NCBI GenBank assembly: GCA_963422375.2
Contig: OY729427.2
Location: 1,248,001 to 1,312,000 of the forward strand
From: Bryobacterales bacterium
GTDB taxonomy: Bacteria; Acidobacteriota; Terriglobia; Bryobacterales; UBA6623
Direction: 5' to 3'
Length of the DNA stretch: 64,000 bases
Every line of letters begins with the position of its first letter. Position 1 is the first letter of the stretch. A program made the position numbers and the translations under genes. Below are positions 17,664 through 46,778 of this stretch, piece after piece. Below the pieces are notes generated by a model. That model saw nothing but the letters and a program-made list of their open reading frames with translations. It did not search any database and was not told the origin of the DNA.

Positions 17664-19527
17664 CCCGACCGCAGAGAGAAGGAGAAGAGAACCACCCATG
17701 ACCCCCAGCAGCATCCCGCGCGCGCTAGCGACCGCCGGCCTGCTCGCCGCCCTGGCCCTCGGCCTCGCCGCCTGCGGCGGGGACGAGCCCGCCCCCGTGG
17801 TGCAGCCGCCCGCGCCCCAGCCCGCGCCCTTCCAGCCCCAGCCCGTCGAGGTCGCCCTCGGCCAGCACGGCGGCAAGCTCACCCTCATGACCAAGGAGGG
17901 CGGCGGCTTCACCCTCAACGGCGAGGACGTCGCCGACGGCGCCCCCGTCACCGGCGAGGAGAACGGCCTCGCCTACAAGCTCGCCCTGGCCGACGGCAAG
18001 TGGGCCGCCGAATACCAGGCCGCCTCCGCCTCCGTCATGCTCGGCCAGCTCGGCGGAACCCTCGCGCTCTCCCAGAACGAGGACAAGACCTGGTCCGCCG
18101 GCGGGGAGGCCCTGCCCGAGAACCTCACCGTCCCCGGCGACAACGGCCTCCACTACAAGCTCGCCCTGGGCGAGGACGGCGCATGGAGCGCCGAATACCA
18201 GGCCGCCTCCGCCTCCGTCATGCTCGGCCAGCTCGGCGGAACCCTCGCGCTCTCCCAGAACGAGGACAAGACCTGGTCCGCCGGCGGGGAGGCCCTGCCC
18301 GAGAACCTCACCGTCCCCGGCGACAACGGCCTCCACTACAAGCTCGCCCTGGGCGAGGACGGCGCATGGAGCGCCGAATACCAGGCCGCCTCCGCCTCCG
18401 TCATGCTCGGCCAGCTCGGCGGAACCCTCGCGCTCTCCCAGAACGAGGACAAGACCTGGTCCCTGCCCGGCGGGGAGGCCGCCGACGGCGCCCTCGTCGG
18501 CGACGCCGGCGGGCCCCAGTACCGCCTCGCCCAGAACGAGGACGGCGCCTGGGCCGGCGCCTACGTGCCCCGCAGCGCCTCCGCCGCCCTCGGCACGCTC
18601 GGCGGCACCCTCGCGCTCGACGTGGCCGAGGACGGCTCCGCCTGGCTCGGCGGCGAGCCCCTCGCCGCCGGCCGCGAGGTCGCCGGCCCCGCCAACGGCC
18701 TGCAGTACCGGCTCGCCCAGGGCGAGGACGGCTCCTGGGCCGGCCAGCACGTGCCCGCCACCCAGCCCGTAGCCCTCGGCGGCTCCGGCCGCAGCGTCGA
18801 GCTCGCGCAGGCCGAGGACGGAACCTGGTCCGCGGCCGGCTCCCCCGTCGCCGACGGCGCCGCCTACGCCGACAGCCTCGGCCTCAAGTGGACCCTGTCC
18901 CTGGCCGACGGCAAGTGGGCCGCCGCCCACCAGGCCGCCACCGCCTCCGTCATGCTCGGCCAGCACGGCGGAACCCTCGACCTCGCGCAGGCCGAGGACG
19001 GCTCCTGGACCCTCGCCTCCGGCGAGCCCGTCCCCGCCAAACTCACCGTCCCGGTCGCCGGCTACGACAACGCCTACGCCGTCACCCGCGACCCCGCCAC
19101 CGGCGAATACTCCGCCGCCTACGTCCGCGACGACTCCCAGAGCGGCTCCCAGGCCGTCGCCGTCGGCCTCGCCGGCAGCCTGCAGCTCTACCGCGCCGAG
19201 GACGGCTCCTGGTCCGCCTCGCCCGAGCCCGGCGGCGACCCCGTCGCCCACGGCCACGTCCACCCCGCCGCCTCCGGCGACGCCTACGCCCTCTCCCTCG
19301 ACGACGCCGGCAACTGGTCCGCCGCCTTCCAACCCGCCGACGTCGAGGTGCGCGGCGCCCCCCTCGCCGCCAGCACCCTCGAGGGCGGCGCCGGCTGGAC
19401 CCTCTCCGACCCCGCCTCCGGCGCCTCCGCCGAGCTCGCCGCCTCCGGCGACGCCGACATCCAGGGCAGCCTCTACCGCGTCCTCCAAACCGACGACGGC
19501 TCCCTCCTCGCCGATCGCTACGACCTC
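17664..19527. repeat. Left arm of a ~1.86-kb inverted repeat (partner 34913-36776)
   Basis: Translations identical from MTPSS to ADRYDL; nucleotide sequence identical wherever I compared it, except one mismatch just upstream of the SD. Confidence 0.93.
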
Positions 19528-22209
19528 CCGATCAAGGGCAGCCCGTTCACGGCCGACCTCAAGGGCGACGCCGCGCGGCCCGCCCTGAAGGCCGACGACC
19601 GCGACACCCCCGCCGACGAGGGGGGCACCGAGCTCATCCTGGCCGGCACCTCCTTCGACGTCGGCGCGCTGCTCGACTCCGGCGCGGCCGACATGCCGGG
19701 GCCCAACATGATCGCCGAGGCCCGGGACGAGATGGCCAAGCTGCGCGACCAGGTGAGCGCGCTGGTGGACCTGTTCAAGGACGACGGCCTGACCAGGGCA
19801 GGGCTGGGAACCGAGCTGGGCAGGAAATGGGAAGCCGCGCAAAAGGTGGTCGACGGCGTCCTGAACGGCTCCGAGCAGCTGGACAGGGTCGACACGCCCA
19901 CCCGCGTCGTGGGGGCCTTCGACGAGCTCGTCGACGCGCTCTCGACCGAAGACGCCTTCGTCGCGGCCACGGCCGAGGACGGCGGCGGCGTGTTCGAGGA
20001 CTACGCGGTCAAGGCCGCCGACGCCGTCAAGGCGTACGGCCGCTCCGCGTGGGAGGCCAAGGCCGCGCTGGGCACCCTCGGGGGCACGCGCTTCGGCGCC
20101 GTCCACCGCCGCGACCGCCAGCATGCCGAGCAGGGCACCCCCAACCAGAACGAGAGGGTCCAAGCCTTCGCCTTCGCCACGGTCGAGCCCACCCGCCGCG
20201 CCAGCGCCATGCAGGCCTCGGGCAACGCCTACTACGAGGGCCGGACGGTGGCGGTCGACACCGGCCGCAACTTCTACGAGGGCCGGATCGAGCTGCAGGT
20301 GCGCTTCGCCAGCGACAAGGTCAGCGGCATGGTGACCGACCTGCAGTCGGACGAGGGCGCCTGGGAGCACGGCGTCGGCGGCGCGGTGGAGCGCATCTTC
20401 CTCCCGGACGCCGCGCTGCGCCGGACGCTGACGTGGGACAAGAGGAACGGCCTAGCCCGCCTCTCCTACGGGGCGGCCGCGGGCTCCTTCCGCGACGTCG
20501 ACGTGAGCGGCAGCGCCTTCCAGGGCACCCTGCTGGGCCGCGGCGACGAGGCCGGCGAGCAGGCCGTAGGAACCTGGGATGTCGGCGGCAAGATCGCCGG
20601 CGGCTTCGGGGCCGAGCGCGGCGCGGACCGCATGGACCCGGGCTCGACCCTGATCGAGGACGTGACGACCACCGAGACGGAAGCCCTGCTCGGCACCGCG
20701 AAGACCGAGTTCACCGCGACGGAGCTCTTCCTAAACGATATCTCCGACGGGACCTCCGGCGTCACGCGGGACTACAAGCTGAAGCTCGACCAGCTGTTCG
20801 GGGACGGCTACGAACTCGTAGGCGAGGACGAGGACACGCTCTGGGCGCAGCAAGAGCTGCGCAAGGGCACGCATGTCGCCGAGGCCAAGAAGGAGATCAC
20901 CAAGCTGCGCAACAACTACCAGAAGTGGATCGACTTCATCGACCGCGATTCGAGCGACGCAGACGAGGCAACCGCGCAGGCGGAGAAGGGGAAGCTCCTC
21001 GACTCACTGGCCAACGAGATCGACGAGCACCTCTTCGGTGCCGGGGGCATTTCTTCGGGTTTGGATATCCTGAACGAAGGAAAAGCTTACGACTCCAAGA
21101 CCACCAACGACGCCGAGGTGCTCGCCCGAGTCGACTCGGCGCTCGAGGCCCTGGGGAGCAAGGATGCCCTCGCCGACGCCCTCGCCGACGGCGGCATCTT
21201 CTTCCGCGACTCCGACAACGACGACGACAACGATTTCAACGAAAAGAACGGCGGCCTGTCCCCCGACGCCATCTGGAACAAGCCCTTCTCCAAGGTGCTG
21301 CTGTGGACGGACCGCACGGACTACACCCGCTTCGGTGCCTGGAGGGTGCAGCGCAGCGAGTACGCGGCCGACAACAGCTGGGTAGACCAAGACAACCCCG
21401 ACTGGATGTCCGAGGGAACCTACAAGCAGGGTCGCAATCCGGAGCCGTTCGCCTACAGCCCGCTGCCGACGACAACGTACAGCGGCGTCGGCGAGGCCGG
21501 GTACCCAGGTGACGGGTCCGCCCGCTACGTCGGCACGACGGTGGCGGTCCAGGACACCATCTTCCTGCTGGGAGACGTCACCGCGCGGATGACGTGGGAT
21601 GCGGAGACGGTCGGGGGCGATCTCGTCGTGACCGTCAGCAACCTGCATTCCACCGATCCCGGCTTCGGCCCGCTGCGGCACGGCTACCCTGACTATCCCG
21701 CGAATGCAACCCTTACCAACGGCGATAATCCCGGCGGTCGGCATACGCAGGCTAGGTCCGGCACGTTCAGCATCCAGTCGTTCAGCATCAGAGCGACCGT
21801 CAGCACCAACGCAGACGACGAGGTGGTCTTCGAGGGAGAGCATACCGACGCGAGCTTCCTCAGCAGAATCGAATACGACACGCCCGACGGCAAGGTCCAA
21901 GCGCATGACGCAAGCGGCGCCCCGGGCCACGCACTGATTTGGAACTCCCGGACACAGGCCCATCGAGTGGCCAATGAGAACTACTACGGCCCGGGCAAGA
22001 CGGGGGAAGGCCAGCTGAACGTCGACTCCACGGTTGCCGCATCGGTCGACGGAAGTTTCGTCGGCCGGAACGCCGACGGGCCGATGGGGCTCATCGGAAC
22101 TTGGGTTATCAAATCCTCGTCGAGTAGCTATCCGAACCGCCACCAGATCGGCATCGGGAACACGAGAGCTCCGATCTACGGCGCGTTCGGCGCGGACGTC
22201 GCGCCCTAG
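17698..22209 (+). CDS. Giant surface lipoprotein, copy 1 (repeat stalk plus two TbpB-like beta-barrel lobes)
   Basis: Lipobox LALGLAA-C, Pro-rich linker, ~61-aa repeats; barrel-end motifs FQGTLLG..AVGTW..IAGGFGA and VDGSFVG..GLIGTW..IYGAFGA; SD GAAGGAG upstream. Confidence 0.85.
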   Translation: MTPSSIPRALATAGLLAALALGLAACGGDEPAPVVQPPAPQPAPFQPQPVEVALGQHGGKLTLMTKEGGGFTLNGEDVADGAPVTGEENGLAYKLALADGKWAAEYQAASASVMLGQLGGTLALSQNEDKTWSAGGEALPENLTVPGDNGLHYKLALGEDGAWSAEYQAASASVMLGQLGGTLALSQNEDKTWSAGGEALPENLTVPGDNGLHYKLALGEDGAWSAEYQAASASVMLGQLGGTLALSQNEDKTWSLPGGEAADGALVGDAGGPQYRLAQNEDGAWAGAYVPRSASAALGTLGGTLALDVAEDGSAWLGGEPLAAGREVAGPANGLQYRLAQGEDGSWAGQHVPATQPVALGGSGRSVELAQAEDGTWSAAGSPVADGAAYADSLGLKWTLSLADGKWAAAHQAATASVMLGQHGGTLDLAQAEDGSWTLASGEPVPAKLTVPVAGYDNAYAVTRDPATGEYSAAYVRDDSQSGSQAVAVGLAGSLQLYRAEDGSWSASPEPGGDPVAHGHVHPAASGDAYALSLDDAGNWSAAFQPADVEVRGAPLAASTLEGGAGWTLSDPASGASAELAASGDADIQGSLYRVLQTDDGSLLADRYDLPIKGSPFTADLKGDAARPALKADDRDTPADEGGTELILAGTSFDVGALLDSGAADMPGPNMIAEARDEMAKLRDQVSALVDLFKDDGLTRAGLGTELGRKWEAAQKVVDGVLNGSEQLDRVDTPTRVVGAFDELVDALSTEDAFVAATAEDGGGVFEDYAVKAADAVKAYGRSAWEAKAALGTLGGTRFGAVHRRDRQHAEQGTPNQNERVQAFAFATVEPTRRASAMQASGNAYYEGRTVAVDTGRNFYEGRIELQVRFASDKVSGMVTDLQSDEGAWEHGVGGAVERIFLPDAALRRTLTWDKRNGLARLSYGAAAGSFRDVDVSGSAFQGTLLGRGDEAGEQAVGTWDVGGKIAGGFGAERGADRMDPGSTLIEDVTTTETEALLGTAKTEFTATELFLNDISDGTSGVTRDYKLKLDQLFGDGYELVGEDEDTLWAQQELRKGTHVAEAKKEITKLRNNYQKWIDFIDRDSSDADEATAQAEKGKLLDSLANEIDEHLFGAGGISSGLDILNEGKAYDSKTTNDAEVLARVDSALEALGSKDALADALADGGIFFRDSDNDDDNDFNEKNGGLSPDAIWNKPFSKVLLWTDRTDYTRFGAWRVQRSEYAADNSWVDQDNPDWMSEGTYKQGRNPEPFAYSPLPTTTYSGVGEAGYPGDGSARYVGTTVAVQDTIFLLGDVTARMTWDAETVGGDLVVTVSNLHSTDPGFGPLRHGYPDYPANATLTNGDNPGGRHTQARSGTFSIQSFSIRATVSTNADDEVVFEGEHTDASFLSRIEYDTPDGKVQAHDASGAPGHALIWNSRTQAHRVANENYYGPGKTGEGQLNVDSTVAASVDGSFVGRNADGPMGLIGTWVIKSSSSSYPNRHQIGIGNTRAPIYGAFGADVAP
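18007..18462 (+). repeat. Exact 183-bp (61-aa) intragenic tandem repeat, ~2.5 units
   Basis: Units start at 18007, 18190 and 18373 (GCCGAATACCAGGCC...); more diverged units flank them. Confidence 0.95.
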
Positions 22210-22262
22210 AGTCAGTGTCCAGCCGGTCGGGAGCGCGTCCGTGCCCGGCCGCCAGAGTCCTC

Positions 22263-22292
22263 GGGGGAGCGGCTAGCCCGCTCCCCCTTTTT
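22263..22292 (+). terminator. Intrinsic terminator after lipoprotein copy 1
   Basis: GGGGGAGCGG-ctagc-CCGCTCCCCC hairpin followed by a T-run. Confidence 0.8.
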
Positions 22293-22544
22293 CCTTGCCT
22301 CCCCGGTGACGCCGCGTAGCAGCCGGTGTCGGTGACACAACCAGTCGGCCGGACCGATCCCGCTGTCCGCCCGTGATACCACCCGCAACCGGTAGGCACC
22401 AGCGAAGGCGGCGTCCGCAAGGCATGTCGCCGACTGCGTCCGAACGTCTCTCCCCGCGTGCCCGGAAAGGGAAAGGTGATTCCCCGGGGCTCCCCAGCGT
22501 GCGGCGTGCCCGTCCTAGGGAAGCGGCCTGGTGCGAGGGGACTT

Positions 22545-22995
22545 TCACGGATCCCGACGGACAACGGCTAGGGACGCGAGCAACGACTTCGGCCCACGGT
22601 TCTCCGCTTCCGTCTTCCGCCGGGCGTCGGCTTCCCGCCGGGCTCGCGCTTCCGCGCTCGCCCGCGCAGCCTCGGCCGCCTCCTTCGTCCCTACGGCTTC
22701 CGCGCGCGCCGCTTCAGACACATTGCGCTCCTGCATGAACCGCAAGTGGTTGCGTAACACTCGCCCCGACGCCGCGTCCCATAGACGCAGGTCCAGCCCG
22801 TCCACCCAGGCCTCCAGTTCCAGCACCTCGCTGCGCAGCACCGGACGGCCGTCCCAGCCCCGGCTCAGGAGTTGCGGCGGGTAGCTGCCCGCCGCCGAGC
22901 GCATGCCCTGCAGCCGCTCGGGCATCAGACCGCGTTCCGGGTCGAGCTGCTAGTACTCCCGCGCGCCTAGCCGCAGATACTCCCGCGCCTTGGCT
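22545..22995 (-). pseudogene. Uma2/DUF820-like endonuclease C-terminal fragment
   Basis: KAREYLRLGAREY*QLDP...RSEVLELE..LRLWDAASG followed by an E/A/R-rich coil; 5' part missing next to IS1380. Confidence 0.7.
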
Positions 22996-23010
22996 TGGCG
23001 GGAGTTCTAG

Positions 23011-24710
23011 CCCGCATTATTCACGAATGCGGCGCAGGCTCATGGGTCCAGTTTCCGGGCCCTCGATGGCCGCCAAATCTGCTTCCGAAACGCCTGCGGG
23101 CGGGGAATGCTGGGCTTGCGGGGCGTCTCGCGAGCGGCGTGCGGGCCGCGGACACCTCCTCGGCGGGACCCGCCCGGAGGGCAGGCACGGTTTCCCCCGG
23201 CGCCTGCCGACACTCTCCGGATGGACCCGGCCCGGCGTCATATCGGCACGGCCCCCAAGCCCCGCGCCACCACCACCCGGGCGTCCCGGAACGGTGCCAT
23301 CCGCGGCACTCGCAGCACGATCGGCTTCGGCAGGCCGAGGCGCAACCCGTCCACCCGGCGCTTCCGCAGCGGCGTGTCCCGTGCCTGCCAGCGCAGTTCC
23401 TGCATGATCACGCAGGCCGCCGCCGCGAGCGGCGCGCGGAACCGGTTCGCCGCGAAGCTCGAGCAGCTGGCGCGGTCCATCCGCATCCCGTGCTCGAGCT
23501 CCTTGACGCGGTTCTCCACGTCTCCCCGCAGGCAGTGGATCCGCTCGTAGAGGCGCTGCGGGCTGCCGCCCGCGTTGGTCACCACGTAGCGCGGGTGCCA
23601 CTGCGGGGCGCGCCCGGGAAACTCGCTCGCGTCCGCCTTGACGATCACCCGCCGCGCCCGCGACCGGCGGCCCGCCCGCTAGACGAACTGCCCGTGCAGC
23701 GGGCCCGGGTTCTTGCCCGCGGCCGCCGCTGCCCCGCCGGGGGCCGCGCGCCGCTCCGGCACCGCGTTCTTCTGCAGGCACGCCACGCACTCCAGGCCCT
23801 CGCGCTCGCCATAGGCCAGCAGCTCGTCCCCTTGGAAGCCCGCGTCCAGGCGCAGGCGCAGCGTCGCCCGCGGGAAGAATTCCCGCAGCAGCGGCAGCAA
23901 GCCCTGCGCCGCCGCGAGATGCCGCTCGCGCTCGTCGTCGAAGCGCACCGCGCCCACCAGCGGCAAGTAGCAATGCGTGTCGTGGAAGCGGTTGCACAGC
24001 GCCAGCTGCCGGCCCCCGTGCGGCGGCTCGCAGGTCGGGTCGAAGTCCAGCTCGACGATCCTCGTCTCAGGGCGCCGCTCGTGCCGGCGCCGCACGACGC
24101 AGCGGGCCGGCACCGCGGACAGCGCGCTCGGCGCGTCCGCGGTGCCGGCGTTCTCGAAGCGCGACAAGGTGGGCCGGGACGGCAGGTCGCGGCCCTGCCA
24201 GGGGTCGCGCCCGAGCGGCAGCTTGAACACGGGGCCGCCGCCGAGGCGCCCGGCGTCGTTGCAGTCCTCGCAGCCGCAGGCGAGGCCGTAGATGCGCTGG
24301 CGGAGCCTGTCGGCGAGGGGGTGCAGCGCCTCGGAGGGCTGGCGCCGGTCGCGCAGGCAGTCGGCGAACGCCGCGGTGAGTCCGGGAGCGCGGTCGGCGA
24401 TCACGACCGGGACAGCGCCGCCGTCGGAGCTGCTGCGCTCGTGATCGAAGCGGGCGGCGACGGGGCGACTTAGCGGATTGCGGAACGGAAGGCCTTGGGA
24501 GCCTGCGGCTGCGACCATGGATTCAATAGCACCTACCGGCTGAAAACAGTTGCAGTCAATTGACTTGGATCTCACCCGAACCGGGCCGGGGTTGCCGCCG
24601 GGGATCGCAGGGCACTCGTGGGAGCGAGAATCGCGCTGGACCGGAGGCCCTCACGGCCCGGGCGGAGGGACCGGACTATGGCCCTCCGGGCTACTCATGA
24701 ATTATCCGGG
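23011..24710 (-). mobile_element. IS1380-family element, degenerate transposase
   Basis: TIRs CCCGCATTATTCACGA / TCATGAATTATCCGGG flanked by CTAG on both sides; LRQRIYGLACGCEDCND, SRPTLSRFEN, RLDAGF and RGDVENRVKE motifs. Confidence 0.9.
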
Positions 24711-24714
24711 CTAG

Positions 24715-26497
24715 CAGCCTGTCGGACTTAGGGCCCCGGCTGGTCTTGAATCCGCCCTGCGTGTCTTCCCAATCATCTAGGAGCCCGTGTAATTGGCGGG
24801 AAGTACGAGCATCGACTTCACGATTCTCTGACAGCTATCAGATAGATTCATGACGAAGTTCGTGCCTTGCGACCGCGAGCAGCCCTTCCTGCTGCCCGTC
24901 GACATGAGCGACTGGGTCCCCTCCGACGACCTCGCCCATTTCGTCATCGAGGCGGTCGACCATGTCGACCATGTCGACTTCCAGCGCTTCCGCGTCAACG
25001 AGCGCGGCACCGGCTCGGCGCAGTACGAGCCGCGCATGATGCTGGCCCTGCTGATCCACTGCTACGCCAGCGGCATCTTCTCCTCGCGCCGCATCGAGCG
25101 CGCCACCTACCGCGACATCGGCGTGCGCTTGGTGGCCGCCAACCTGCACCCCGACCACGACACCATCGCCAAGTTCCGGCGCGAGAACTTCGACGCCGTG
25201 GGCGAGTGCTTCCTGCAGGTGCTGCTGCTGGCGCGCGAAGTGAACGTGCTCAGTGAACGTGCTCAGTGAACGTGCTCAGTGAACGTGCTCAGTGAACGTG
25301 CTCAGTGAACGTGCTCAGTGAACGTGCTCAAGGTCGGCGCCGTCAGCGTCGACGGCACCAAGATGGACGGGTCGGCCAGCAAGCACCGCTCGGCAACTTA
25401 CGCCCGCGCCGGCGAGCTGATCGAGCAATTGCAGGGCGAGATCCGGGAGCTGCTGGCCCAGGCGGAAGACGCCGACGCGCTGGCGCCGGAAGACGCCGGG
25501 CGGCTGCCGCGGGAGATCGCGCGGCGGGAGGACCTCAAGCGCAAGCTGGAAGAGGCGCGCGAGCGCCTGGAGCGCCTGGAGCGCGAGGCGCGGCAGCGGG
25601 CGGAGGCCGGGCGGGCCGAGTACGAGCGCAAGGTGCAGGCGCGAGGCGCGCAAGGGGGCCGGGCGGGCGCCGAAGCCGCCGAGCGAGGAGCCGGACCCCA
25701 AGCGGCAGTCGCACCTGACAGACCCCGAGAGCGCGCTGATGCGCAAGAACGCGCAGGCGGAATTCCGGCAGGGATACAACGCGCAGGCGAGGGTGGACGC
25801 GGACGGCTCGCAGCTGATTCTCGGGCAGGGCGTGACGAGCAGCGCGCACGACAAGGGCGAGCTGGCGAACGGGGCGGAGTCGATTCCGGCGGAACTGGGC
25901 CGGCCGGCGGCGGTGCTGGCGGACAACGGGTACGCGAGCGAGGCCGAGGCGGCGAAGGTCGAGGCGACGGGGGTGGAAGCCTGCGTGGCGACGGGGGCGG
26001 AGGGCCGCCGGCGGCAGCGCGATTTCCGGCCGGAGACGGGCAAGGAGCCGCAGCCGCCGAAGAAGGACTGGCTGCGAGACATGGCGGGGAAGCTGGCGAG
26101 CGACGAGGGCCGGGACCTGTACAAGCTGCGCAAGCAGACGGTGGAGCCGGTGTTCGGGATCATCAAGTCGGTACCGGGGTTCCGCAGCTTCTCCCTGCGG
26201 GGGATCGAGAAGGTGCGAGGCGAGTGGAGTCTCGTCGCCCTGGCGTACAACTGCAAGCGGCTGCACGTCTTGCAACTGGCGCAAGCGGCCTGATCGCGCG
26301 TCTTTCGTCCCGCAACCGGCCGGACGGCCCCGGAAACGGCCCCGGAAAGCCCCTTGAGGCCCCGTACGGGCCTTCCGGCCCCGAAAACCCGCCCGGGAGG
26401 GAAACGCCGTATCCGCCCGAAATCGCCGCTTGGAGCGGATCCGACCCCGCCAGCAGGTTTTCCGGCGTTGTCTCAGGCCCCTAAGCCCGACAGACTG
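24715..26497 (+). mobile_element. IS1182-family element, transposase (24850-26293) disrupted
   Basis: TIRs CAGCCTGTCGGACTTAGGG / CCCTAAGCCCGACAGACTG flanked by CTAG; FSSRRIE, PDHDTIAKFR, VDGTK, ADNGY and VEPVFGIIK motifs. Confidence 0.9.
25239..25329 (+). repeat. Seven perfect tandem copies of the 13-mer AGTGAACGTGCTC inside the IS1182 transposase
   Basis: Direct count; a single copy restores AREVNVLKVGAVSVDGTK. Confidence 0.95.
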
Positions 26498-26547
26498 CTA
26501 GGGCACCGGACGCCGCATGCAGTTTCGCGGCGAGCGGGACCGCCGTC

Positions 26548-26826
26548 TCAGGGGAAGAAGGCCAGCTTGACCAGCAGTGCGATGATCACTGGTCCGTAGG
26601 CGAACTTCACGAGCGCCATGTCACGGCCAAGGCGCGCCTCGAGATCCTTGAGGGCGAGTTCGAGCCGCTTGATCTCCGCCCCCAAGCGCACCTCGAGATC
26701 CGTCAGGTCAGCTTTCGTTGCTAGGTCTCCCGTGCCGGGGACGGCCAAGGCCGCCTCCCTGGCCAACTCCTCGTCCGCTCCCGCATTGACCAAGGCCCGG
26801 TAGACCTCCGCCACCATGACGCTCAT
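26548..26826 (-). CDS. DUF1640/CCDC90-like small coiled-coil protein with C-terminal TM
   Basis: YRALVNAGA...DLATKADL motif, heptads, hydrophobic C-terminus; AGGAGG upstream. Confidence 0.75.
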   Translation of the reverse strand: MSVMVAEVYRALVNAGADEELAREAALAVPGTGDLATKADLTDLEVRLGAEIKRLELALKDLEARLGRDMALVKFAYGPVIIALLVKLAFFP

Positions 26827-28040
26827 TGCTGGTTGCCTTCCTCCTGGAATCCGGTCGCTTCATTCACGCCCGGAACGCCGGATCCCGCTCCGATCAGTAT
26901 CGCAGGCGCTGGAAGTCGCTGATGCCCATGAATCCTAGCACACGCGACCGTCAGGCCCTAGTTCGTCTCCGCACTGCGCGCCCGACCCGCGACCTGTCCA
27001 AGGCGACCCGAATCCGCTGAGGGAGGGGATCCCAGCGCGATGTACGCTTGGCCGGGGCCTACGGGCGGGCAGGGGGACCTCGGGTCCGCCGCTGCGGCCG
27101 TGCAGGGACCACGGAGTCCCGGAGGCCGACGCCGCGACTCGGCGCGGCGCGGCGCGCGGCGCAAGGCCACGCCGGCAGATCTCGTGCTCGACCGCTCGCC
27201 GGGCTGCTGGACCCGGCTCCGTCGGGGTACCCACGCTGCAGGTGCAGGTCCTTCAACTGCTCCACCCGTCCGGTCGTGCGTTGCGCCGCCTCGCGGATGC
27301 CGAAGCGGATGGCCGTCGGCCGTCTCTGTACGCCCGAGCGGAAGAGCGCTTGGAGACGCCCCGAAGCGCGTGGAGGCTTCCGAGAAGCGTTGGTGCATGA
27401 AGGCCGCCAGCAATCTGACAGGGGCGACCTGAACCGTGGCGACATCGATCCGGTCCGCGAATTCCGCGGCCCTCCTCATTGCTCGCGCCGTCCCTGTCTG
27501 CCCGGGCTGGCCGTGCCTGAGGCAGGGGTTGACTCGTCCGCACCCGTTGCCGACTCTGCAGGGCCGGGGGCGGGGCGCCAAGGACGAGCCTCCGTTGTGC
27601 GCCCGCACTCGGCAAGCCTGCGGAAGAGGAGGGACTCGCCTTTGGGAGACCCCCTGCCGACCGCGAGGGCATCCCGGTCGCCGCGAAGCATGACCCAGGC
27701 AGCCGTCGGCCGGGAGGGCCGTATCCGAGCGATGCGCCTTCCCGCCCCGCCGCGAAAGCCATCTTCTGACGCACTTCGCCCGCCGCCCATCTCCACGGGA
27801 CCAAGCCTTGGCACCCCGAGGAGGGCTCTGACATCAGTCAGCCTCTTCGCGTGGCCGGGGGCCGGCTCGCAAGAAGCTGTCGGGCTTGGGCGCGGGCGCG
27901 GGCGAAGCCTGCGACCGTCCACTCGGATAGCGAACGCCCGTTGGCCAACGATCCGGCCCGCTCGGCGGTGCAACGCCCCACCGCGTCGACGCACGTCACA
28001 CCCCCCCCCTCCCCACCCAGACCCAATCAGCCTAAGCAAC

Positions 28041-31000
28041 CCCGCGCCCCAGCCCGCGCCCTTCCAGCCCCAGCCCGTCGAGGTCGCCCTCGGCCAGCAC
28101 GGCGGCAAGCTCACCCTCATGACCAAGGAGGGCGGCGGCTTCACCCTCAACGGCGAGGACGTCGCCGACGGCGCCCCCGTCACCGGCGAGGAGAACGGCC
28201 TCGCCTACAAGCTCGCCCTGGCCGACGGCAAGTGGGCCGCCGAATACCAGGCCGCCTCCGCCTCCGTCATGCTCGGCCAGCTCGGCGGAACCCTCGCGCT
28301 CTCCCAGAACGAGGACAAGACCTGGTCCGCCGGCGGGGAGGCCCTGCCCGAGAACCTCACCGTCCCCGGCGACAACGGCCTCCACTACAAGCTCGCCCTG
28401 GGCGAGGACGGCGCATGGAGCGCCGAATACCAGGCCGCCTCCGCCTCCGTCATGCTCGGCCAGCTCGGCGGAACCCTCGCGCTCTCCCAGAACGTCGCCG
28501 TCGGCCTCGCCGGCAGCCTGCCGCTCTACCGCGCCGAGGACGGCTCCTGGTCCGCCTCGCCCGAGCCCGGCGGCGACCCCGTCGCCTCCGGCGACGCCTA
28601 CACCGCCGCCTTCCGCCCCGACACCGTCACAGTGAGCGGCGCCCCCCTCGCCGCCAGCACCCTCGAGGGCGGCAAGGGCTGGACCCTCTCCGACCCCGCC
28701 TCCGGCGCCTCCGCCGAGCTCGCCGCCTCCGGCGACGCCGGCGACGCCGACCTCCAGGGCAGCCTCTACCGCGTCCTCGCAACCGACGACGGCCTCCGGG
28801 CCGATCGCTACGACCTCCCGATCAAGGGCAGCCCGTTCGTGAAGGCCCTAAAACCAGCTGAGGGCGCTGCCGCGAAGCCCTCGCTCAGCGCCGACAATGC
28901 CGACACCCCCGCCGACGAGGGGGGCACCGAGCTGCTCGTCGGCGGCACCTCCTTCGACATCGGCCGGATGCTCGACGACGGCTCCGACACGCGCCCGCGC
29001 GACTCCGACCCGACCTTCGTCGAGGACGCCGTCAAGGACCTCGTCGCCATCCGCGGGGTCATGGAGGCGCTCGTCGAGAATCTCACCGGGGCCGACGACC
29101 GGACGAACCTGACGAACGCCCTCACCACCCAGTGGAACAAGGCCGACGATGTCATCAAGAGCGTCTTCGGCAAGAAAGGGCTCGTCGAACAAGGCGTGGC
29201 GGACACCACTCCGCGGCGCGCCGTCGGGGCCCTGCAGGACGTCATCGACGCCCTCTCCAGCGCCGCGGACGCCTAGCCTGCCACGGGAACCTCGAGACGC
29301 GCGAGGCGGTCGGCGTGTGGTCCGTCGGGGAGGCTAGCACCGTGGCGGACGCCGACAGCAGCTACATCTCCGACGGCTTCGGCGCGGCCTACGACCGCGC
29401 CGAAACCGTGGAAGTCGGCGACGTCTCCGGGGCTCCGGGGGCTTCACAACAACCAAGACCTCGGGGCGGGCGGGCCGCCCGAATGAGAACAACGGCGGCC
29501 TCACGTCGTCAAGCCTCCTCTACCAGTTCCCCTGGAAGGGCGGGATCAAGTTCGGCCCGGCGCTGGGCAACAAGAAGCTGAGGCTGACCTACGCACGGCG
29601 AAAGCTCGATGTGAGCTACATAGTGCTTGTGACAAAACCCCTGAATTCTGGCCTGACCAGCATTTCATACTACATCCTGATGTCGGATGGATCTCCAAAC
29701 ACAACATATAGGGCCCAAGGTCGGAAGTTGCTCAGCCGCCAATCGCGAAGATTTCCGCGCTCTACCCAGAATTGGCAGGACTTCGGACTAGTCGTAGCAT
29801 TCCAGTGAAATCTTCGCCTTGAGAGATTGGACCTAACGCCTTTGTTGTCAAGGGGATACGAGTTTTGTCACAGGCACTACATACAGAGCGGCGGCAGAAC
29901 CGCTACGACGCACGCTTCCTCGGACTACAAAACCGACCGGGACAAGCCGGCCAAGGTGGCGCACCAGCTCGCCCTCGAGACGCTGTTTGGCGAGGGCTAT
30001 CCCGCGGACACGGCCACGTTCTGGCCGGACATTACCTTCGGGCAGTCCCACTGCCACCAGTTCCGCGGCCAACTCCAGCCGGGGCTGGCGCGCGACAAGA
30101 TCGAGGCCGCCTACCAGAAGCCAAAGAACGTCGCCGCACTGCCGTCCACGGACGCCTGCGCCAAGGTCAAGGGCGAAACGCGCAGAAACGTCTGGGAGAG
30201 CGTCGGCACGGCCTTCGGGGAGCGCATCATCCCCCATAAGCACTTCGACGTCACGGACGACGGCGACACTCTCGAGAACGCCGTCTTCGGCGCCTACCCG
30301 GGCGACGACGAGGAAGCTCTGAAAATGATCGAGGCGCTGCTCGGCACCCTGCAGGACCCCGAGGATCTCGCGACGGCTCTGGAGACCGGTGCCGACGGCG
30401 GGTTCATCAGCAAGCGGCTGAAGACTGCCGCCACCTCCCCCAAGGACGGTGACAAGCTAGTCAGGCTAGGGTACCTGAGCCTGGACGCGTAGGCCATCGC
30501 CAACCGCGCCGAGATGGAGACGCTCGTCGAGACGGCCTCTACGGAACACACCCGCTTCGGCGCATGGCAGGCGAGGATCAACCCGTACGCCAAGTACAGG
30601 GATGGCGAGAACGGCTCGGGCTACCGATTCGAATACGATAGCAAGAACCGCTAGGACGTCTTCGCCTACAGCCCGCTGCCCCAGGCCGTCTACCGCAACA
30701 CGAAAGATGCGCGCTACCCGGGTGACGCGACCCTGTACTACTCCGGCGAGCCCCGGGCCGTGCTTCAGGGACTGTTCTACGTCGGCCAGGTCGAGGCCAC
30801 GGTGCGCTGGAAGTCCTCGAGTATCGACGACAGCGAGATGGACCTCGTGATCCGCGACCTGTCCCACGAAGACATCGGCAGGCTGCGGTACTTCGACGAG
30901 CGGGATGACCTCAATGACCGGGGCATGCGCAAGAGCAACAAGTCTGCCATGGAAGAGTCCGAAAAAAGCGGAAAGGAGATCGAGGGGATTATCTTCAGCG

Positions 31001-31398
31001 GGATCAAGCTCAGTACCAATGACAACCACAAGCTCGGGGTCACCCATCAGCGCACCGGATACCACCGCGGGACCCGGGTACAGAACGAGAACGACGCCCC
31101 CCGTTGGTTTGCCCTTGCGGACTACACGGCGGAAGAAAACGGTGACGACATGAATGTCCGGCTGTAGCTGGCGGGTCTGCAGGACCTCGTGGAACCCACC
31201 AACCACTACACACCTGAGGAGAATGAACCTGCCGGATCCCGGGTCAACGCGAAATTCGCAGGCAAGACGGAGGCCGGCCCGGTCGGGATTGTCGGCCGCT
31301 ACCAACTGTGGACCCACGATGCGCTCGCGAACGGGAACCTGATGGGGGTCAAGAATGGACTGGTCGGCAGTTTCAGCGCGGAGGTGCGACGACCCTAG
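28041..31398 (+). pseudogene. Giant lipoprotein copy 2: signal-less, deleted, mosaic cassette
   Basis: Homology starts at the PAPQPAP linker with no ATG or lipobox; fewer repeats; stop and deletion at 29274; MITE at 29623; in-frame TAG at 30490, 30652 and 31165; ends with the barrel motif GIVGRY..LVGSFSAE. Confidence 0.88.
29623..29877. mobile_element. MITE family A, 255 bp
   Basis: TIRs GTGCTTGTGACAAAAC / GTTTTGTCACAGGCAC; 6-bp TSD TACATA; removal restores KLDVSYIQSGGR. Confidence 0.92.
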
Positions 31399-31425
31399 GG
31401 TGGATCATGATCCGCGAGCTTCTAG

Positions 31426-31778
31426 CCCGGATAATTCATGAGTAGCCCGGAGGGCCATAGTCCGGTCCCTCCGCCCGGGCCGTGAGGGCCCCCGGTCCAG
31501 CGCGATCCTCACTCCTAGGAGTGCCCTGCGCGACCGGCGGCAGCCCTCCGAGGCGCTCCACTCCCTCGCGGACATGCTCCGCCAGCGCGTCTACGGCCTC
31601 GCCTGCGGCTGCGAGGACTGCCACGACGCCGGGCGCCTCGGCGGCGACCCCGTGTTCAAGCTGCCGCTCGGGCGCGACCCCTGGCAGGGTCGCGACCTGC
31701 CGTCCCGGCCCGCCCTGTCGCGCTTCGAGAACGCCGTCACCGCGGACGCGCCGAGCGCGCTGTCCGCGGTACCGGCCC
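31426..31778 (+). mobile_element. IS1380 left-end remnant
   Basis: CTAG followed by CCCGGATAATTCATGA, inverted match to 24620-24710; LRQRVYGLACG fragment. Confidence 0.8.
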
Positions 31779-31940
31779 GACAAAACCCCTGAATTCCGGC
31801 CCGATCAGCATTTCATGCTACACTCTACCCGGAATTGACACGATTTCGCGCTAGCCGTAGCGTTCCAGCGAAATCTTCGCCTTGGGAGATTGGCCCTAAC
31901 GCCTTTGCTGTCAAGGGGATGCGAGTCCTGTCGCAGTCAC
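31779..31940. mobile_element. Degenerate, internally deleted MITE family A copy
   Basis: GACAAAACCCCTGAATTC...GAAATCTTCGCCTTG...TGTCAAGGGGAT matches 29630-29877 with a central deletion. Confidence 0.75.
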
Positions 31941-32046
31941 TATCCGGACAGTTCCCTGGGCTAGAGCCGCCAGTCGCGAGGACCCAGCGCGTTAGGGACG
32001 CCGCCTCGGCCGGGGAGTGCGAGCGTCGGCATGCATGGGACAAACG

Positions 32047-32082
32047 AAAAAGCGGGGGGGCGATTGAACTGCCCCCCCCGCT
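32047..32082 (-). terminator. Intrinsic terminator after lipoprotein copy 3
   Basis: On the minus strand, a GC-rich stem AGCG(G)n...(C)nGCT followed by TTTT, ~13 nt after the stop codon. Confidence 0.8.
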
Positions 32083-32095
32083 GCGCGGCGTGCGG

Positions 32096-35000
32096 CTACG
32101 GAAGCTCCAAACCGAACGCGCCCTTGATAGTGCCCTTGCTGTTGCCGTTGGAGACGGCGGTGTGCTCCACTTTCAGCTCGAACCGTCCGATCAGACCTTG
32201 CGGTCCTCGCCCGCCCGAGAGGTCCTGCCCGACGAACTGGCCCTTCACCGCGTAGCTGTGGGATCCGTCGGTCGTCGATGCGTCGGAGCCGGAGTAGATG
32301 GGAAGCACGACCTCTGTCGAGCCGTCCTCCTTCGCGATCAGCAGGTGGGCGTCTAGCTTCACGCTCGACTTTTTGTAATCGACTTCTTGTTTGAATCCAA
32401 CGAGGCCGTTCTTTTTGTCATGCGTAATGGGGATCTTCGTGAAGACGATCTTCTCCACCGGGTGGCCGATGTCCTTATCTACCTTGCCCGTCTTGGGGTC
32501 GTGGAGAGGTTGCTTGTAGCGATGGACTTCGTCCCAGGAGCCCGCTGACGTGGTTTTCAGCAGTTTTCCGCCGTCGTTCTTGGCGTAGTCCTTGTAACCG
32601 CCAACGCCCCAGCCGAACAGCTTGAGGGGGCCGAAGCCGTCGTTCTCGAGACCGCGCAGCTCTAGCCGCATTCTCGAGGAGTCGATCGCGTCGGCTTTCC
32701 ACTCCACCTGCGCCCAGGCCGTGCCCTTGAGGAAGTTCCCGGCGATCTGCGCCACGGTCTCTCCTTCGTACGAGAGCGTCGCCCCTAGCGGGTAGCGCGA
32801 GTCGTCGACGCCCTCGAACTCGGTCTGCGGCAGGGTGCTGTAGGCGAACACGTCATTCTTCCAAGACTGCTCGTAATAGGCTTCTGCTCTGGTGTCGATG
32901 CCCCCTTCGCTCTGGTACGTCGCGTGGGGGCTCCAGCGCCAGCGCCAAGAGCCTAGGTAGGTGTAGTCGGTGTGCGCGACGGACAGCAGGACGCTGGTGC
33001 GCGGGGCGTCCCAGACAGACGCCAAGGGCTTGCCCGCCTTGGGATCGTAGATCTGCGTGGGGATGTCGCTGAAGACGCCCTGCGCCTCGAAGGCCTCCTC
33101 GAAGGCCTCCTCGTTCGCGAGCGCCGCCTGAACTCGCGCGACCAGGTCGATACTGTCGGCGATCTCCCTGTTCGTTGCGCCGAGCGCGAGCAAGCGGTCA
33201 GCGTCGTCAGCGTCGTCAGCGCCGGCCGGCCAGACGCCACTGTCGCTGATCGCTAGGGAGTGGGCTTGGAGCTCCCAAGTAGTCTTGCCCTCGCTGACCG
33301 TCTTCTTCCACCAGCCGAAGACGTGGTCGGACAGGGCGGCGTTGACCTTGTTGAGCTCCTTCTGGCGGACCTGCACCAGATCGACCCCGGCGGTGGAGGC
33401 GGAGATCCCCTGAAGGACCCTCAGGGCGTCGCTCACCTCCTCGTGGGCCGCCGCGATCTGCCTCTTGCCGGCGAAATGAAGGTCGGGCAGCATCTCGGGA
33501 AAGACGGTCCGCTCCGCCTCCGCCGTCAGTTCGTATTTGTCGTCCCCGGCCCCGAACATCTCCTTCAGGCTGAGTTTCTCGAGCTGGCTCCCGCCTTCGT
33601 CGACCGGCGCCTTCAGCTCCAGGTTGCCGGCGTTGAGCTTCCATTCCATCCCGGAAGGCGCCTGCGGGGCGATGCTCGCCCTGAACTTGCTGACGTCGTC
33701 GGAGCCGGCGGGGGTGGCGCCGGAGACCGGCAGGTCGCCGGGCTGGCGGACGGCGCCGAAGCCGCCGGCGATGTAGTCGGCGCTGTCGGTCTTGCTTAGG
33801 TTGCCGGCGGACCAGGTGCCGACGGCCTCGCTGCCGGCGGCGTCGCCGGTGCCGACGAGCTGGCCGGCGAACGAGCCCAGCGCGGCTCTGGCCGGTTGCC
33901 CGCTGCGCAGCGGGTCGAAGCTGAGGGTGACGCCGCCGTCGCGCGGGTCGCCGCTCTTCTTGGCCCGGGACCAGCTGGCGCGGCGCTGCAGCGCCGCCTC
34001 GGGCAGGGCCACCGACTGGACGGGCAAGCCTCTGTGGGCCCAGCTGTCGCCGGCGCCGATGCTGGCCAGCCCGCTCACCAGGCCGCTGACCTTCTCGTTT
34101 CCGGGGGTCAGGGTGACGGCGATCTCGACGGCGCCTTCGTAGAGGACGCCCTCGCCGTCGACGGCGAGGGTGCCGCCGCGGTAATGGGCGGCGCCGCTGG
34201 CGCTGACGTCCGTCCTGTAGCGCGTGGGGGCGGCGGTGGCGTAGGCGAAGCCGCCCAGCTCGCCCCGGCCGTCGTGCTCGTAGGCGGCCCCTTCGTCGGC
34301 GTGCCCGCGCCGCTTGACGGCCGCGGCGCCGTAGCGCGTGCTGCCGAGAGTGCGCAGGGCGGCCTCGCCCTCGAACTCCCTGGCATCGAAGATCTTGCGG
34401 GCCTGGGCGGGGGTGCGGGGGTCGATTTCGGCGAAGACCCCCAGGCTGTTCTTGGCGGTGGCCTCGACGAGCGCGTCGGCGCTGGAGAGGGCGTCGATGA
34501 CGTCCTGCAGGGCCCCGACGGCGCGCCGCGGAGTGGTGTCCGCCACGCCTTGTTCGACGAGCCCTTTCTTGCCGAAGACGCTCTTGATGACATCGTCGGC
34601 CTTGTTCCACTGGGTGGTGAGGGCGTTCGTCAGGTTCGTCCGGTCGTCGGCCCCGGTGAGATTCTCGACGAGCGCCTCCATGACCCCGCGGATGGCGACG
34701 AGGTCCTTGACGGCGTCCTCGACGAAGGTCGGGTCGGAGTCGCGCGGGTGCGTGTCGCTGCCGGCGCCGAGCAGCGCGCCGACGTCGAAGGAGGCGCCGC
34801 CGACGAGCAGCTCGGTGTTTTCCTCGTCGGCGGGGGTGTCGCCGTCGTCGGCGGAGAGCTCGAGGTCGGATTCGAGGTGGTCGGTTTTGAAGGCCGTCCT
34901 GCCTTCGATATCGAGGTCGTAGCGATCGGCGAGGAGGGAGCCGTCGTCGGTTTGGAGGACGCGGTAGAGGCTGCCCTGGATGTCGGCGTCGCCGGAGGCG

Positions 35001-36742
35001 GCGAGCTCGGCGGAGGCGCCGGAGGCGGGGTCGGAGAGGGTCCAGCCGGCGCCGCCCTCGAGGGTGCTGGCGGCGAGGGGGGCGCCGCGCACCTCGACGT
35101 CGGCGGGTTGGAAGGCGGCGGACCAGTTGCCGGCGTCGTCGAGGGAGAGGGCGTAGGCGTCGCCGGAGGCGGCGGGGTGGACGTGGCCGTGGGCGACGGG
35201 GTCGCCGCCGGGCTCGGGCGAGGCGGACCAGGAGCCGTCCTCGGCGCGGTAGAGCTGCAGGCTGCCGGCGAGGCCGACGGCGACGGCCTGGGAGCCGCTC
35301 TGGGAGTCGTCGCGGACGTAGGCGGCGGAGTATTCGCCGGTGGCGGGGTCGCGGGTGACGGCGTAGGCGTTGTCGTAGCCGGCGACCGGGACGGTGAGTT
35401 TGGCGGGGACGGGCTCGCCGGAGGCGAGGGTCCAGGAGCCGTCCTCGGCCTGCGCGAGGTCGAGGGTTCCGCCGTGCTGGCCGAGCATGACGGAGGCGGT
35501 GGCGGCCTGGTGGGCGGCGGCCCACTTGCCGTCGGCCAGGGACAGGGTCCACTTGAGGCCGAGGCTGTCGGCGTAGGCGGCGCCGTCGGCGACGGGGGAG
35601 CCGGCCGCGGACCAGGTTCCGTCCTCGGCCTGCGCGAGCTCGACGCTGCGGCCGGAGCCGCCGAGGGCTACGGGCTGGGTGGCGGGCACGTGCTGGCCGG
35701 CCCAGGAGCCGTCCTCGCCCTGGGCGAGCCGGTACTGCAGGCCGTTGGCGGGGCCGGCGACCTCGCGGCCGGCGGCGAGGGGCTCGCCGCCGAGCCAGGC
35801 GGAGCCGTCCTCGGCCACGTCGAGCGCGAGGGTGCCGCCGAGCGTGCCGAGGGCGGCGGAGGCGCTGCGGGGCACGTAGGCGCCGGCCCAGGCGCCGTCC
35901 TCGTTCTGGGCGAGGCGGTACTGGGGCCCGCCGGCGTCGCCGACGAGGGCGCCGTCGGCGGCCTCCCCGCCGGGCAGGGACCAGGTCTTGTCCTCGTTCT
36001 GGGAGAGCGCGAGGGTTCCGCCGAGCTGGCCGAGCATGACGGAGGCGGAGGCGGCCTGGTATTCGGCGCTCCATGCGCCGTCCTCGCCCAGGGCGAGCTT
36101 GTAGTGGAGGCCGTTGTCGCCGGGGACGGTGAGGTTCTCGGGCAGGGCCTCCCCGCCGGCGGACCAGGTCTTGTCCTCGTTCTGGGAGAGCGCGAGGGTT
36201 CCGCCGAGCTGGCCGAGCATGACGGAGGCGGAGGCGGCCTGGTATTCGGCGCTCCATGCGCCGTCCTCGCCCAGGGCGAGCTTGTAGTGGAGGCCGTTGT
36301 CGCCGGGGACGGTGAGGTTCTCGGGCAGGGCCTCCCCGCCGGCGGACCAGGTCTTGTCCTCGTTCTGGGAGAGCGCGAGGGTTCCGCCGAGCTGGCCGAG
36401 CATGACGGAGGCGGAGGCGGCCTGGTATTCGGCGGCCCACTTGCCGTCGGCCAGGGCGAGCTTGTAGGCGAGGCCGTTCTCCTCGCCGGTGACGGGGGCG
36501 CCGTCGGCGACGTCCTCGCCGTTGAGGGTGAAGCCGCCGCCCTCCTTGGTCATGAGGGTGAGCTTGCCGCCGTGCTGGCCGAGGGCGACCTCGACGGGCT
36601 GGGGCTGGAAGGGCGCGGGCTGGGGCGCGGGCGGCTGCACCACGGGGGCGGGCTCGTCCCCGCCGCAGGCGGCGAGGCCGAGGGCCAGGGCGGCGAGCAG
36701 GCCGGCGGTCGCTAGCGCGCGCGGGATGCTGCTGGGGGTCAT
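32096..36742 (-). CDS. Giant surface lipoprotein, copy 3 (1548 aa)
   Basis: True start MTPSS at 36742 with SD; same lipobox and N-terminal half as copy 1; barrel motifs FAGQLVG..AVGTW..IAGGFGA and VKGQFVG..GLIGRF..IKGAFGL. Confidence 0.87.
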   Translation of the reverse strand: MTPSSIPRALATAGLLAALALGLAACGGDEPAPVVQPPAPQPAPFQPQPVEVALGQHGGKLTLMTKEGGGFTLNGEDVADGAPVTGEENGLAYKLALADGKWAAEYQAASASVMLGQLGGTLALSQNEDKTWSAGGEALPENLTVPGDNGLHYKLALGEDGAWSAEYQAASASVMLGQLGGTLALSQNEDKTWSAGGEALPENLTVPGDNGLHYKLALGEDGAWSAEYQAASASVMLGQLGGTLALSQNEDKTWSLPGGEAADGALVGDAGGPQYRLAQNEDGAWAGAYVPRSASAALGTLGGTLALDVAEDGSAWLGGEPLAAGREVAGPANGLQYRLAQGEDGSWAGQHVPATQPVALGGSGRSVELAQAEDGTWSAAGSPVADGAAYADSLGLKWTLSLADGKWAAAHQAATASVMLGQHGGTLDLAQAEDGSWTLASGEPVPAKLTVPVAGYDNAYAVTRDPATGEYSAAYVRDDSQSGSQAVAVGLAGSLQLYRAEDGSWSASPEPGGDPVAHGHVHPAASGDAYALSLDDAGNWSAAFQPADVEVRGAPLAASTLEGGAGWTLSDPASGASAELAASGDADIQGSLYRVLQTDDGSLLADRYDLDIEGRTAFKTDHLESDLELSADDGDTPADEENTELLVGGASFDVGALLGAGSDTHPRDSDPTFVEDAVKDLVAIRGVMEALVENLTGADDRTNLTNALTTQWNKADDVIKSVFGKKGLVEQGVADTTPRRAVGALQDVIDALSSADALVEATAKNSLGVFAEIDPRTPAQARKIFDAREFEGEAALRTLGSTRYGAAAVKRRGHADEGAAYEHDGRGELGGFAYATAAPTRYRTDVSASGAAHYRGGTLAVDGEGVLYEGAVEIAVTLTPGNEKVSGLVSGLASIGAGDSWAHRGLPVQSVALPEAALQRRASWSRAKKSGDPRDGGVTLSFDPLRSGQPARAALGSFAGQLVGTGDAAGSEAVGTWSAGNLSKTDSADYIAGGFGAVRQPGDLPVSGATPAGSDDVSKFRASIAPQAPSGMEWKLNAGNLELKAPVDEGGSQLEKLSLKEMFGAGDDKYELTAEAERTVFPEMLPDLHFAGKRQIAAAHEEVSDALRVLQGISASTAGVDLVQVRQKELNKVNAALSDHVFGWWKKTVSEGKTTWELQAHSLAISDSGVWPAGADDADDADRLLALGATNREIADSIDLVARVQAALANEEAFEEAFEAQGVFSDIPTQIYDPKAGKPLASVWDAPRTSVLLSVAHTDYTYLGSWRWRWSPHATYQSEGGIDTRAEAYYEQSWKNDVFAYSTLPQTEFEGVDDSRYPLGATLSYEGETVAQIAGNFLKGTAWAQVEWKADAIDSSRMRLELRGLENDGFGPLKLFGWGVGGYKDYAKNDGGKLLKTTSAGSWDEVHRYKQPLHDPKTGKVDKDIGHPVEKIVFTKIPITHDKKNGLVGFKQEVDYKKSSVKLDAHLLIAKEDGSTEVVLPIYSGSDASTTDGSHSYAVKGQFVGQDLSGGRGPQGLIGRFELKVEHTAVSNGNSKGTIKGAFGLELP

Positions 36743-36776
36743 GGGTGGTTCTCTTCTCCTTCTCTTTGCGGTCGGG
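34913..36776. repeat. Right arm of the ~1.86-kb inverted repeat
   Basis: Reverse complement of 17664-19527, including the 183-bp tandem units. Confidence 0.93.
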
Positions 36777-36841
36777 CCCCGCGACGGGCAGGGCCCGCCT
36801 GAGGCCAGCGCGTGCAGGACTCCCCGCAGGCGCTTACTGAC

Positions 36842-36871
36842 AGCATCCCACAGGGAATCCCCGCATGTCAA
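36842..36871 (-). promoter_or_regulatory. Candidate sigma70 promoter for lipoprotein copy 3
   Basis: Minus strand TTGACA-N18-GATGCT with an AT-richer tract upstream, ~100 nt before the ATG and outside the inverted repeat. Confidence 0.55.
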
Positions 36872-41370: not shown

Positions 41371-41516
41371 CAAGAAAGAAGATTTGGAGATTGTTGCTTG
41401 AAACATGCAAAGATGAATTTGAAGATCAAGCGTTCTTGTTGCGGACTGCTGAGGCAGAACTACTCCGTTGCGACAGCAATTCACTCAATAAATTCTCTAC
41501 TGAGAGGCGCAAAAGT

Positions 41517-46470: not shown

Positions 46471-46775
46471 GCCTGCCCCTCCTTTTGCTCGCGGAGCCGT
46501 CTGGCCAGCTCGCTGTCGAACGTGGACCCCTGGCGGATCTCGCCTTCCAGGCGCCGCAGCTTCCGGCCCGCGTCGCCGAGGCCAAGACGCCGCGCCAGCC
46601 AGTATAGGAACGCGAACAGGTCGAACGCCAGAGCGCAGGCGTAGGCCGCGACTACGGGCCCGTGCCGCACCGCCAGCTCGTCGCGATACGGTGCCAGGTA
46701 TTCGAACTCGTCCAGCGCCAGCCAGACGGCGACGCCGCCGATCGAGATCGTCAGCCCGAACGCGATGCGCGCCAT
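46467..46775 (-). CDS. Small two-TM membrane protein in the T4SS operon
   Basis: 102 aa, two hydrophobic segments, tightly coupled to both neighbours. Confidence 0.75.
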   Translation of the reverse strand: MARIAFGLTISIGGVAVWLALDEFEYLAPYRDELAVRHGPVVAAYACALAFDLFAFLYWLARRLGLGDAGRKLRRLEGEIRQGSTFDSELARRLREQKEGQA

Positions 46776-46778
46776 GGC

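Follow-up and report, generated by a model that had tools for sequence, protein, structure and literature searches.

Can a bacterium exchange the distal half of a giant surface lipoprotein by inverting the DNA between two copies of its gene? To address this question, we analyzed a 64,000-nucleotide stretch (here, the window) of the genome of a Bryobacterales bacterium (GenBank assembly GCA_963422375.2, contig OY729427.2, positions 1,248,001 to 1,312,000 of the forward strand), in which two such genes, A and B, face each other. Positions are those of the window, and the features are listed in Table 1.

Table 1. Coordinates of the features at the locus and of the candidate invertase of a relative
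Feature	Coordinates	Strand	Basis or remark
Left arm: 5′ UTR/SD, signal peptide, lipobox, Pro linker, repeat stalk	17664..19527	+	Matches the right arm exactly from 17675
Right arm, left-arm sequence in inverted orientation	34913..36776	-	Identical stretch 34913-36765
Gene A, 1503-aa lipoprotein, intact, without conserved promoter, putatively silent	17698..22209	+	
A-specific head, lobe 1 and lobe 2	19528..22209	+	Lobe 1, structure model; lobe 2, similarity and closing GAFGA motif
Gene B, 1548-aa lipoprotein at the putative expression site	32096..36742	-	ORF, alignment, promoter matrix
Intrinsic-terminator-like hairpin 3′ of A	22263..22293	+	Hairpin 22263-22287, z -2.65, U-run after
Intrinsic-terminator-like hairpin 3′ of B	32045..32082	-	32082-32051, z -1.5, U-run after
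TTGACA-N18-GATGCT promoter motif, outside the right arm	36842..36871	-	Equally spaced in leader-bearing homologues of relatives
Copy C, third member of the family, decayed and without leader	28041..31398	+	Own distal head with in-frame stops, internal deletions
Broken multicopy IS relic, DDE_Tnp_1_4	23007..24714	-	
Short multicopy MITE-like element, inserted in copy C	29615..29883	.	
ISAzo13-type transposase gene just past the promoter	37440..38675	+	
Candidate invertase	L031:8201-9364 (G029)	-	Orthologues L091-L096, L066

A preliminary description had reported two intact, convergent lipoprotein genes of ~1500 aa that share an identical inverted repeat of ~1.86 kb, from the Shine-Dalgarno sequence to the residues ADRYDL, enclose an interior of ~15.4 kb, diverge sharply beyond the shared half, and end in a terminator each. 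All of these points were reproduced. Neither gene contains internal stops, and both encode a signal peptide and a lipobox (LAAC, residues 23 to 26, located by eye). The inverted repeat aligns 17664-19541 with 34899-36776. Base by base, the arms show a single mismatch at 17674 and are then identical over 1853 bp (17675-19527 and 36765-34913), with 15,385 bp between the exact arms. The identity begins 23 to 34 nt 5′ of the ATG, leaving the promoter region out. The first difference between the two proteins is at residue 611, directly after ADRYDL, and beyond the arms their identity falls to 39% in lobe 1 and ~25% in lobe 2.

No Pfam family matched the whole of A or B, none meaningful was found for their parts, and a PDB sequence search returned only weak coiled-coil matches. 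The arm encodes all-beta repeats of ~61 residues, and a model of this stalk reached a pLDDT of 94.7; against solved structures it gave no clear match (best Z, 5.2), which is no proof of a new fold. The model of A residues 607-985 (lobe 1; pLDDT, 92) consists of an 8-stranded barrel and a beta handle into which a helical bundle is inserted. Foldseek matched it to TbpB (E, 3.5e-8), in line with the TbpB-like head proposed before, and comparison with HpuA and hemophilins gave a Z of 14.4 (rmsd, 3.4; 203 aligned). Lobe 1 is predicted to be a TbpB/HpuA-type handle-plus-barrel with a helical insert, and lobe 2 probably resembles it, judging from similarity and the closing GAFGA motif. According to PMC8406197, 8-stranded barrels of this type mark Slam cargo. 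Slam (PF04575) was matched above the cut-off in four of the five genomes tested, this genome included (E, 6e-7; one match, unlinked to the locus). A and B are thus modeled as lipid-anchored repeat stalks bearing TbpB-like lobes, which a Slam-family protein is predicted to export to the surface. They share the lipobox, the handle with a C-terminal 8-stranded barrel, and a Slam-family gene in the genome with the Slam-dependent surface lipoproteins (TbpB, HpuA, fHbp, and hemophilin; T11SS cargo) as covered in PMC8406197, but differ in being ~1500 aa long, in having a long stalk of repeats and a helical bundle within the lobe, in lacking a Pfam match, and in their Acidobacteriota host and proposed cassette switching.

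The interior is more than IS debris, since it contains a third family copy, C, which the earlier reading had overlooked; the rest is IS debris. Copy C is a mosaic, with 454 bp identical to the arms, two tracts identical to A only (28800-28838, 39 bp, which passes the arm end by 21 bp, and 28901-28933, 33 bp), and one identical to B only (28994-29265, 272 bp). The sequences that precede A and C are unrelated to each other. A is intact though set among IS debris, whereas C has decayed. Elsewhere in the genome, the family is represented by four weaker paralogue regions. A scan of genome contigs with A lobe 1 found nothing. A broken paralogue (G000:C2:3573721-3576186, minus strand; G000 is this genome) has an A-like leader and head and lacks the conserved promoter.

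Other repeats and genes were noted in the window. Direct IS copies at 23007-24714 and ~40091-41410, 95 to 99% alike and separated by 17 kb, flank a segment with C, B, and the promoter, and recombination between these copies would delete all three. Inverted IS copies form small invertible-looking units at 39092-39776/41629-42313 (99%) and 7912-8839/10454-11194 (84 to 94%). A 13-bp tandem repeat of ~7 copies lies within a broken IS gene (25227-25330). Type IV secretion/conjugation genes (VirB8, TrbI, CagX, and TraG-type ATPases) occupy 44200-56550 on the minus strand, 8 kb from the locus.

Comparison with related genomes had been suggested as a check on the locus, and it strongly supports a variable surface-protein system; the same comparison revealed larger cassette arrays, a recombinase, and poly-G switches that the earlier reading had overlooked. 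Matches to the family were present in all 30 same-genus genomes searched and in none of 30 others, and the titled loci are labeled Bryobacterales/Terriglobia. The clusters and copies examined were those among the matches listed. Six genomes (G016, G017, G019, G024, G025, and G029) contain one cassette-subfamily member with leader and promoter, the others being leaderless and in both orientations. The leaderless cassettes mostly start at one common intragenic point per lineage; G029 has two further cassettes that start elsewhere, and G024 and G029 carry separate full-length subfamilies nearby. Of the 24 leaderless sites scored, 4 are broken, 2 are cut by contig ends, and the other 18 are intact, among them one exact duplicate. 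Six leaderless pairs gave dN/dS values of 0.30 to 0.55 by a simple counting method and under strong codon bias. The best matches of 5′ parts come from the same genome, and those of 3′ parts often come from other genomes. Which cassette type occupies the expression site, or lies next to the fixed recombinase, varies between genomes. The expression-site gene of G016 and its convergent neighbor are 99 to 100% identical for 700 bp and then 55 to 62%, in the same geometry as in the window. The reverse pattern, with shared 3′ parts, was seen in G015, where a convergent family pair 24 kb apart (L038-L039) is 99.7% identical over 3355 bp of the 3′ part; the leaders differ, and one lacks a lipobox.

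A single-copy P4-type tyrosine recombinase with an arm-binding domain is present in 7 of the 30 relatives, always at the edge of the array and in divergent orientation to a leaderless cassette. The copies are 76 to 96% identical to that of G029, with intact catalytic motifs; only the first 16 codons of the G026 gene are on the contig, and G019 retains a remnant. An island integrase was considered and disfavored, as no tRNA adjoins the gene in 6 loci, the downstream flank is syntenic in four genomes, and no direct repeat was found at the far end of four arrays. The start of homology between cassettes is abrupt and coincides with the left edge of an imperfect dyad, RTTMCCG-N7-CGGMAAY. The dyad, at a match of at least 5/7, occurs at 15 of 27 cassette edges versus 4 of 31 controls (two being boundary duplicates), is partly imposed by coding, and has a polymorphic spacer; its likeness to the sfx sites, as described in 10.1101/2024.10.25.620183, is suggestive only. 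Separately, a triplet of tyrosine recombinase genes, presumably RIT-like, lies directly upstream of the expression-site promoter of G025 (L024; G025:C1:1139442-1141664).

Two relatives contain G9-G14 tracts in the code for the signal peptide of dispersed copies, namely, all nine copies fetched from G007 (L102-L110) and seven of eight from G027 (L011, L111-L117). The tracts are in frame in 2/9 and 2/7 copies, respectively, by run lengths that are error-prone in long reads. These copies are candidates for slipped-strand phase variation.

No recombinase was found within the window, and no orthologue of the relatives' tyrosine recombinase was found in the genome (completeness, 96%). Near the locus, searches for serine recombinases and IS110-type enzymes likewise returned nothing. 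The earlier remark that no dedicated local invertase is visible holds. The nearest tyrosine recombinase matches in this genome lie ~23 kb (broken) and 36 kb before A. The window contains no short crossover site with a 7-bp core. The genome has an intact recA.

The locus is probably a working two-state inversion switch of the RecA type, in reduced form. The single predicted promoter would read whichever gene sits at the right arm. RecA-type recombination between the 1853-bp arms would invert the 15.4-kb interior and place the A head instead of the B head in frame behind the promoter, with both heads kept. Any crossover inside the arms would be in frame by construction, and a B × C crossover would give a truncated, OFF-like product. 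Since no dedicated recombinase is present here, the rate of switching may be low. The purpose may be escape from phage or host recognition, or a change of ligand. Seen from the relatives, the locus looks like a reduced, recombinase-less form of a genus-wide cassette system. The silence of A, the inversion, its dependence on RecA, and its purpose are what we infer.

The recombination history of the two genes would fit such exchange. Lobe 1 of A is 55% identical to foreign homologues versus 39% to B, which ranks 46th of 136 matches, and the shared arm is only ~40% identical to any foreign protein. Because the arms are 100% identical while lobe 1 is nearer to foreign homologues than to B, old heads appear to stand on a freshly homogenized stalk; the arms were probably homogenized by recombination within the genome. 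Against inversion, A keeps its full leader, unlike the cassettes of the relatives. The alternative isomer was not seen in contigs, which cannot phase a 1.85-kb repeat, and one orientation was assembled. The single joint found in contigs, C to B, occurs in run X1 at a depth of 2.5 and is lacking in runs X2 and X5; it is ambiguous, as missing branches at low depth give the same picture. The depth of C and B, which lie between the direct IS copies, is 2 to 3 in X1 versus 7 for A; this may be noise.

In vls, vmp, and pilS systems, silent sequences are copied into an expression site. Switching here could likewise be nonreciprocal, with silent heads copied into the expression site by gene conversion or block duplication and the arms serving as landing homology. 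Four relatives hold a duplicate of the expression-site cassette elsewhere (94 to 100%), often together with its neighbor (G016, 9417 bp at 100%; G017, 98%; G019, 95 to 98%; G025, 94 to 98%). Both G016 contig ends duplicate inner parts of the array. The duplicates in the four arrays point to copying or mixed assemblies rather than clean inversion, and the patchy tracts in C and the 5′ SNPs shuffled among the G016 cassettes also favor copying. However, the duplicates may come from the assembly of mixed isomers, a known shufflon problem according to PMC5430464. In the window, moreover, the B head has no spare copy beyond the 272 bp in C, so copying would be a one-way loss. Inversion would be the route that keeps both heads, since the single B head would be lost if A were copied over B. 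We therefore regard switching by copying as unlikely at this locus.

The inversion switch must also be weighed against decay. The array may have degenerated after loss of its recombinase, the arms having been homogenized by recent conversion and A newly silenced and still without stops; C is defunct, broken IS elements abound in the region, the recombinase orthologue was not found in this genome, and one orientation was assembled. Set against such a frozen relic, which seems improbable, 1853 bp of perfect inverted identity and an intact recA provide a substrate for recombination, whether selected or not, and no variants in A or B are among those listed for three other runs.

The proposed switch further depends on A being silent where it now stands. 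A promoter just outside the right arm, with none comparable before the left copy, had been noted earlier, and a family-specific matrix agrees. The motif TTGAC(A/G)-N18-nAnnnT is present 129 to 146 nt before the start of 8 of 18 leader-bearing homologues of relatives and of B, and not of A. A generic scan found no promoter before A, but it also overlooked the promoter and the terminator hairpin of B and was therefore replaced by a matrix of 16 sites from 15 relatives, picked for having TTGAC and hence biased. With this matrix, B scores 25.5 bits (training sites, 19 to 31), C scores 8.4, and A scores -1.1 within 600 nt and 1.5 within 3 kb; of 400 random windows, 1 reaches the score of B and 333 reach that of A. 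From these scores, we infer that A is silent in the present orientation. The TTGACA motif is missing from the remaining 10 of the 18 leader-bearing homologues, so its absence by itself is no proof of silence. A could then be expressed independently of B from an unrecognized promoter, with the identity of the arms explained by the usual concerted evolution of repetitive stalk sequence. In favor of this reading, A comes with an SD, a leader, and a terminator of its own, the motif is also missing from several full-length paralogues of relatives, and the generic scan was blind to the promoter of B as well. The reading is quite unlikely given that nothing promoter-like lies within 3 kb before A, that the identity starts 23 to 34 nt before the ATG and exactly excludes the promoter, and that the leaderless cassettes of relatives cannot be exported alone.

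The identity of the arms is not due to chance, as near-perfect repeats of at least 1 kb are rare in the genome. Apart from the arms, 11 pairs reach this length with an identity of ≥99.5%, 6 of them at contig ends; the arm pair is absent from this count because its alignment runs into diverged sequence and fails the identity filter. Logan contigs of the left flank from runs X1, X2, and X5, which belong to a set of four runs from at most three samples of two studies and one of which may be the source of the assembly itself, all end at 17704, 30 bases inside the identical stretch, where two upstream paths meet. Contigs of X1 also break at 19527/19498, the inner arm end. The depth of arm contigs exceeds that of unique ones (517 versus ~350 in X2 and 32 versus ~22 in X5). 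The repeat is thus real, since contigs of other runs break at the arm ends. An assembly or polishing artifact, named earlier as a refuting case and suggested by the metagenome-type assembly with duplicated contig ends, is largely refuted by these exact breaks and the raised arm depth in independent contigs, even if one run may be the assembly source, and is extremely improbable.

In the sap locus of Campylobacter fetus, homologues with conserved 5′ regions are served by one promoter, and inversion takes place within the common 5′ homology. The genes there are divergent, the segment between them is invertible and carries the promoter, and an S-layer protein is made. S-layer variation by inversion is named in reference titles in PMC1950947 and PMC5634654. 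The comparison with sap drawn in the preliminary description stands in its logic, with complete homologues that share a conserved 5′ region (1853 bp, identical from 23 nt before the ATG). The conserved promoter motif, found at B only, may point to one promoter for the pair. The comparison does not stand in its geometry, for here the genes converge and the promoter is outside the right arm. The locus also differs in having 1.85 kb of homology and in encoding a TbpB-like lipoprotein.

The vpma genes of Mycoplasma agalactiae and vsp genes of M. bovis, switched by inversion, likewise encode repeat-bearing lipoproteins with a conserved 5′ UTR and signal peptide, and recombinase-independent chimeras, duplications, and deletions also arise there (PMC5634654). 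Those systems are driven by a linked Xer1 at short sites; the present locus, in contrast, has no recombinase, a diderm host, and a Slam-type fold. The R64/IncI shufflon (pilV, rci, sfx) combines a constant 5′ part with 3′ ORFs that are partial and lie in both orientations; its tyrosine recombinase is at the far edge, and its sfx sites have a conserved 7-bp core and right arm and a variable left arm (10.1101/2024.10.25.620183 and PMC5430464). Seven relatives resemble this layout, but their cassettes are 3.5 kb long with hundreds of bases of common homology, chromosomal, and accompanied by an integrase-type enzyme with an arm-binding domain. The window, unlike a shufflon, has neither a recombinase nor a short site; A is full length, and only the broken C is leaderless. 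By analogy, the locus would work like sap, vpma/vsp, and, in the relatives, the R64 shufflon, yet it lacks a defining feature of each. No report of such a switch on TbpB-like lipoproteins was found in open-licence papers and preprints.

The genus is likely animal-associated, with sponges as a probable habitat. Tentatively, it is possible that this whole genus of uncultured Bryobacterales-type Acidobacteriota achieves antigenic variation of a giant TbpB-like surface lipoprotein by three switches, namely, a chromosomal mega-shufflon of 3.5-kb cassettes with a domesticated P4-type integrase and a 7-bp-core site, the recombinase-free RecA inversion of the window, and, for dispersed copies, slippage of poly-G tracts in the signal peptide. 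One family would then have moved between three switching mechanisms, and the recombinase of the relatives would be a candidate new invertase for multikilobase cassettes. Most known cases of surface variation by cassettes come from pathogens and gut bacteria; here it would concern Slam-type lipoproteins in an uncultured Acidobacteriota genus and may give a concrete way to test by sequence what these bacteria vary for evasion or binding.
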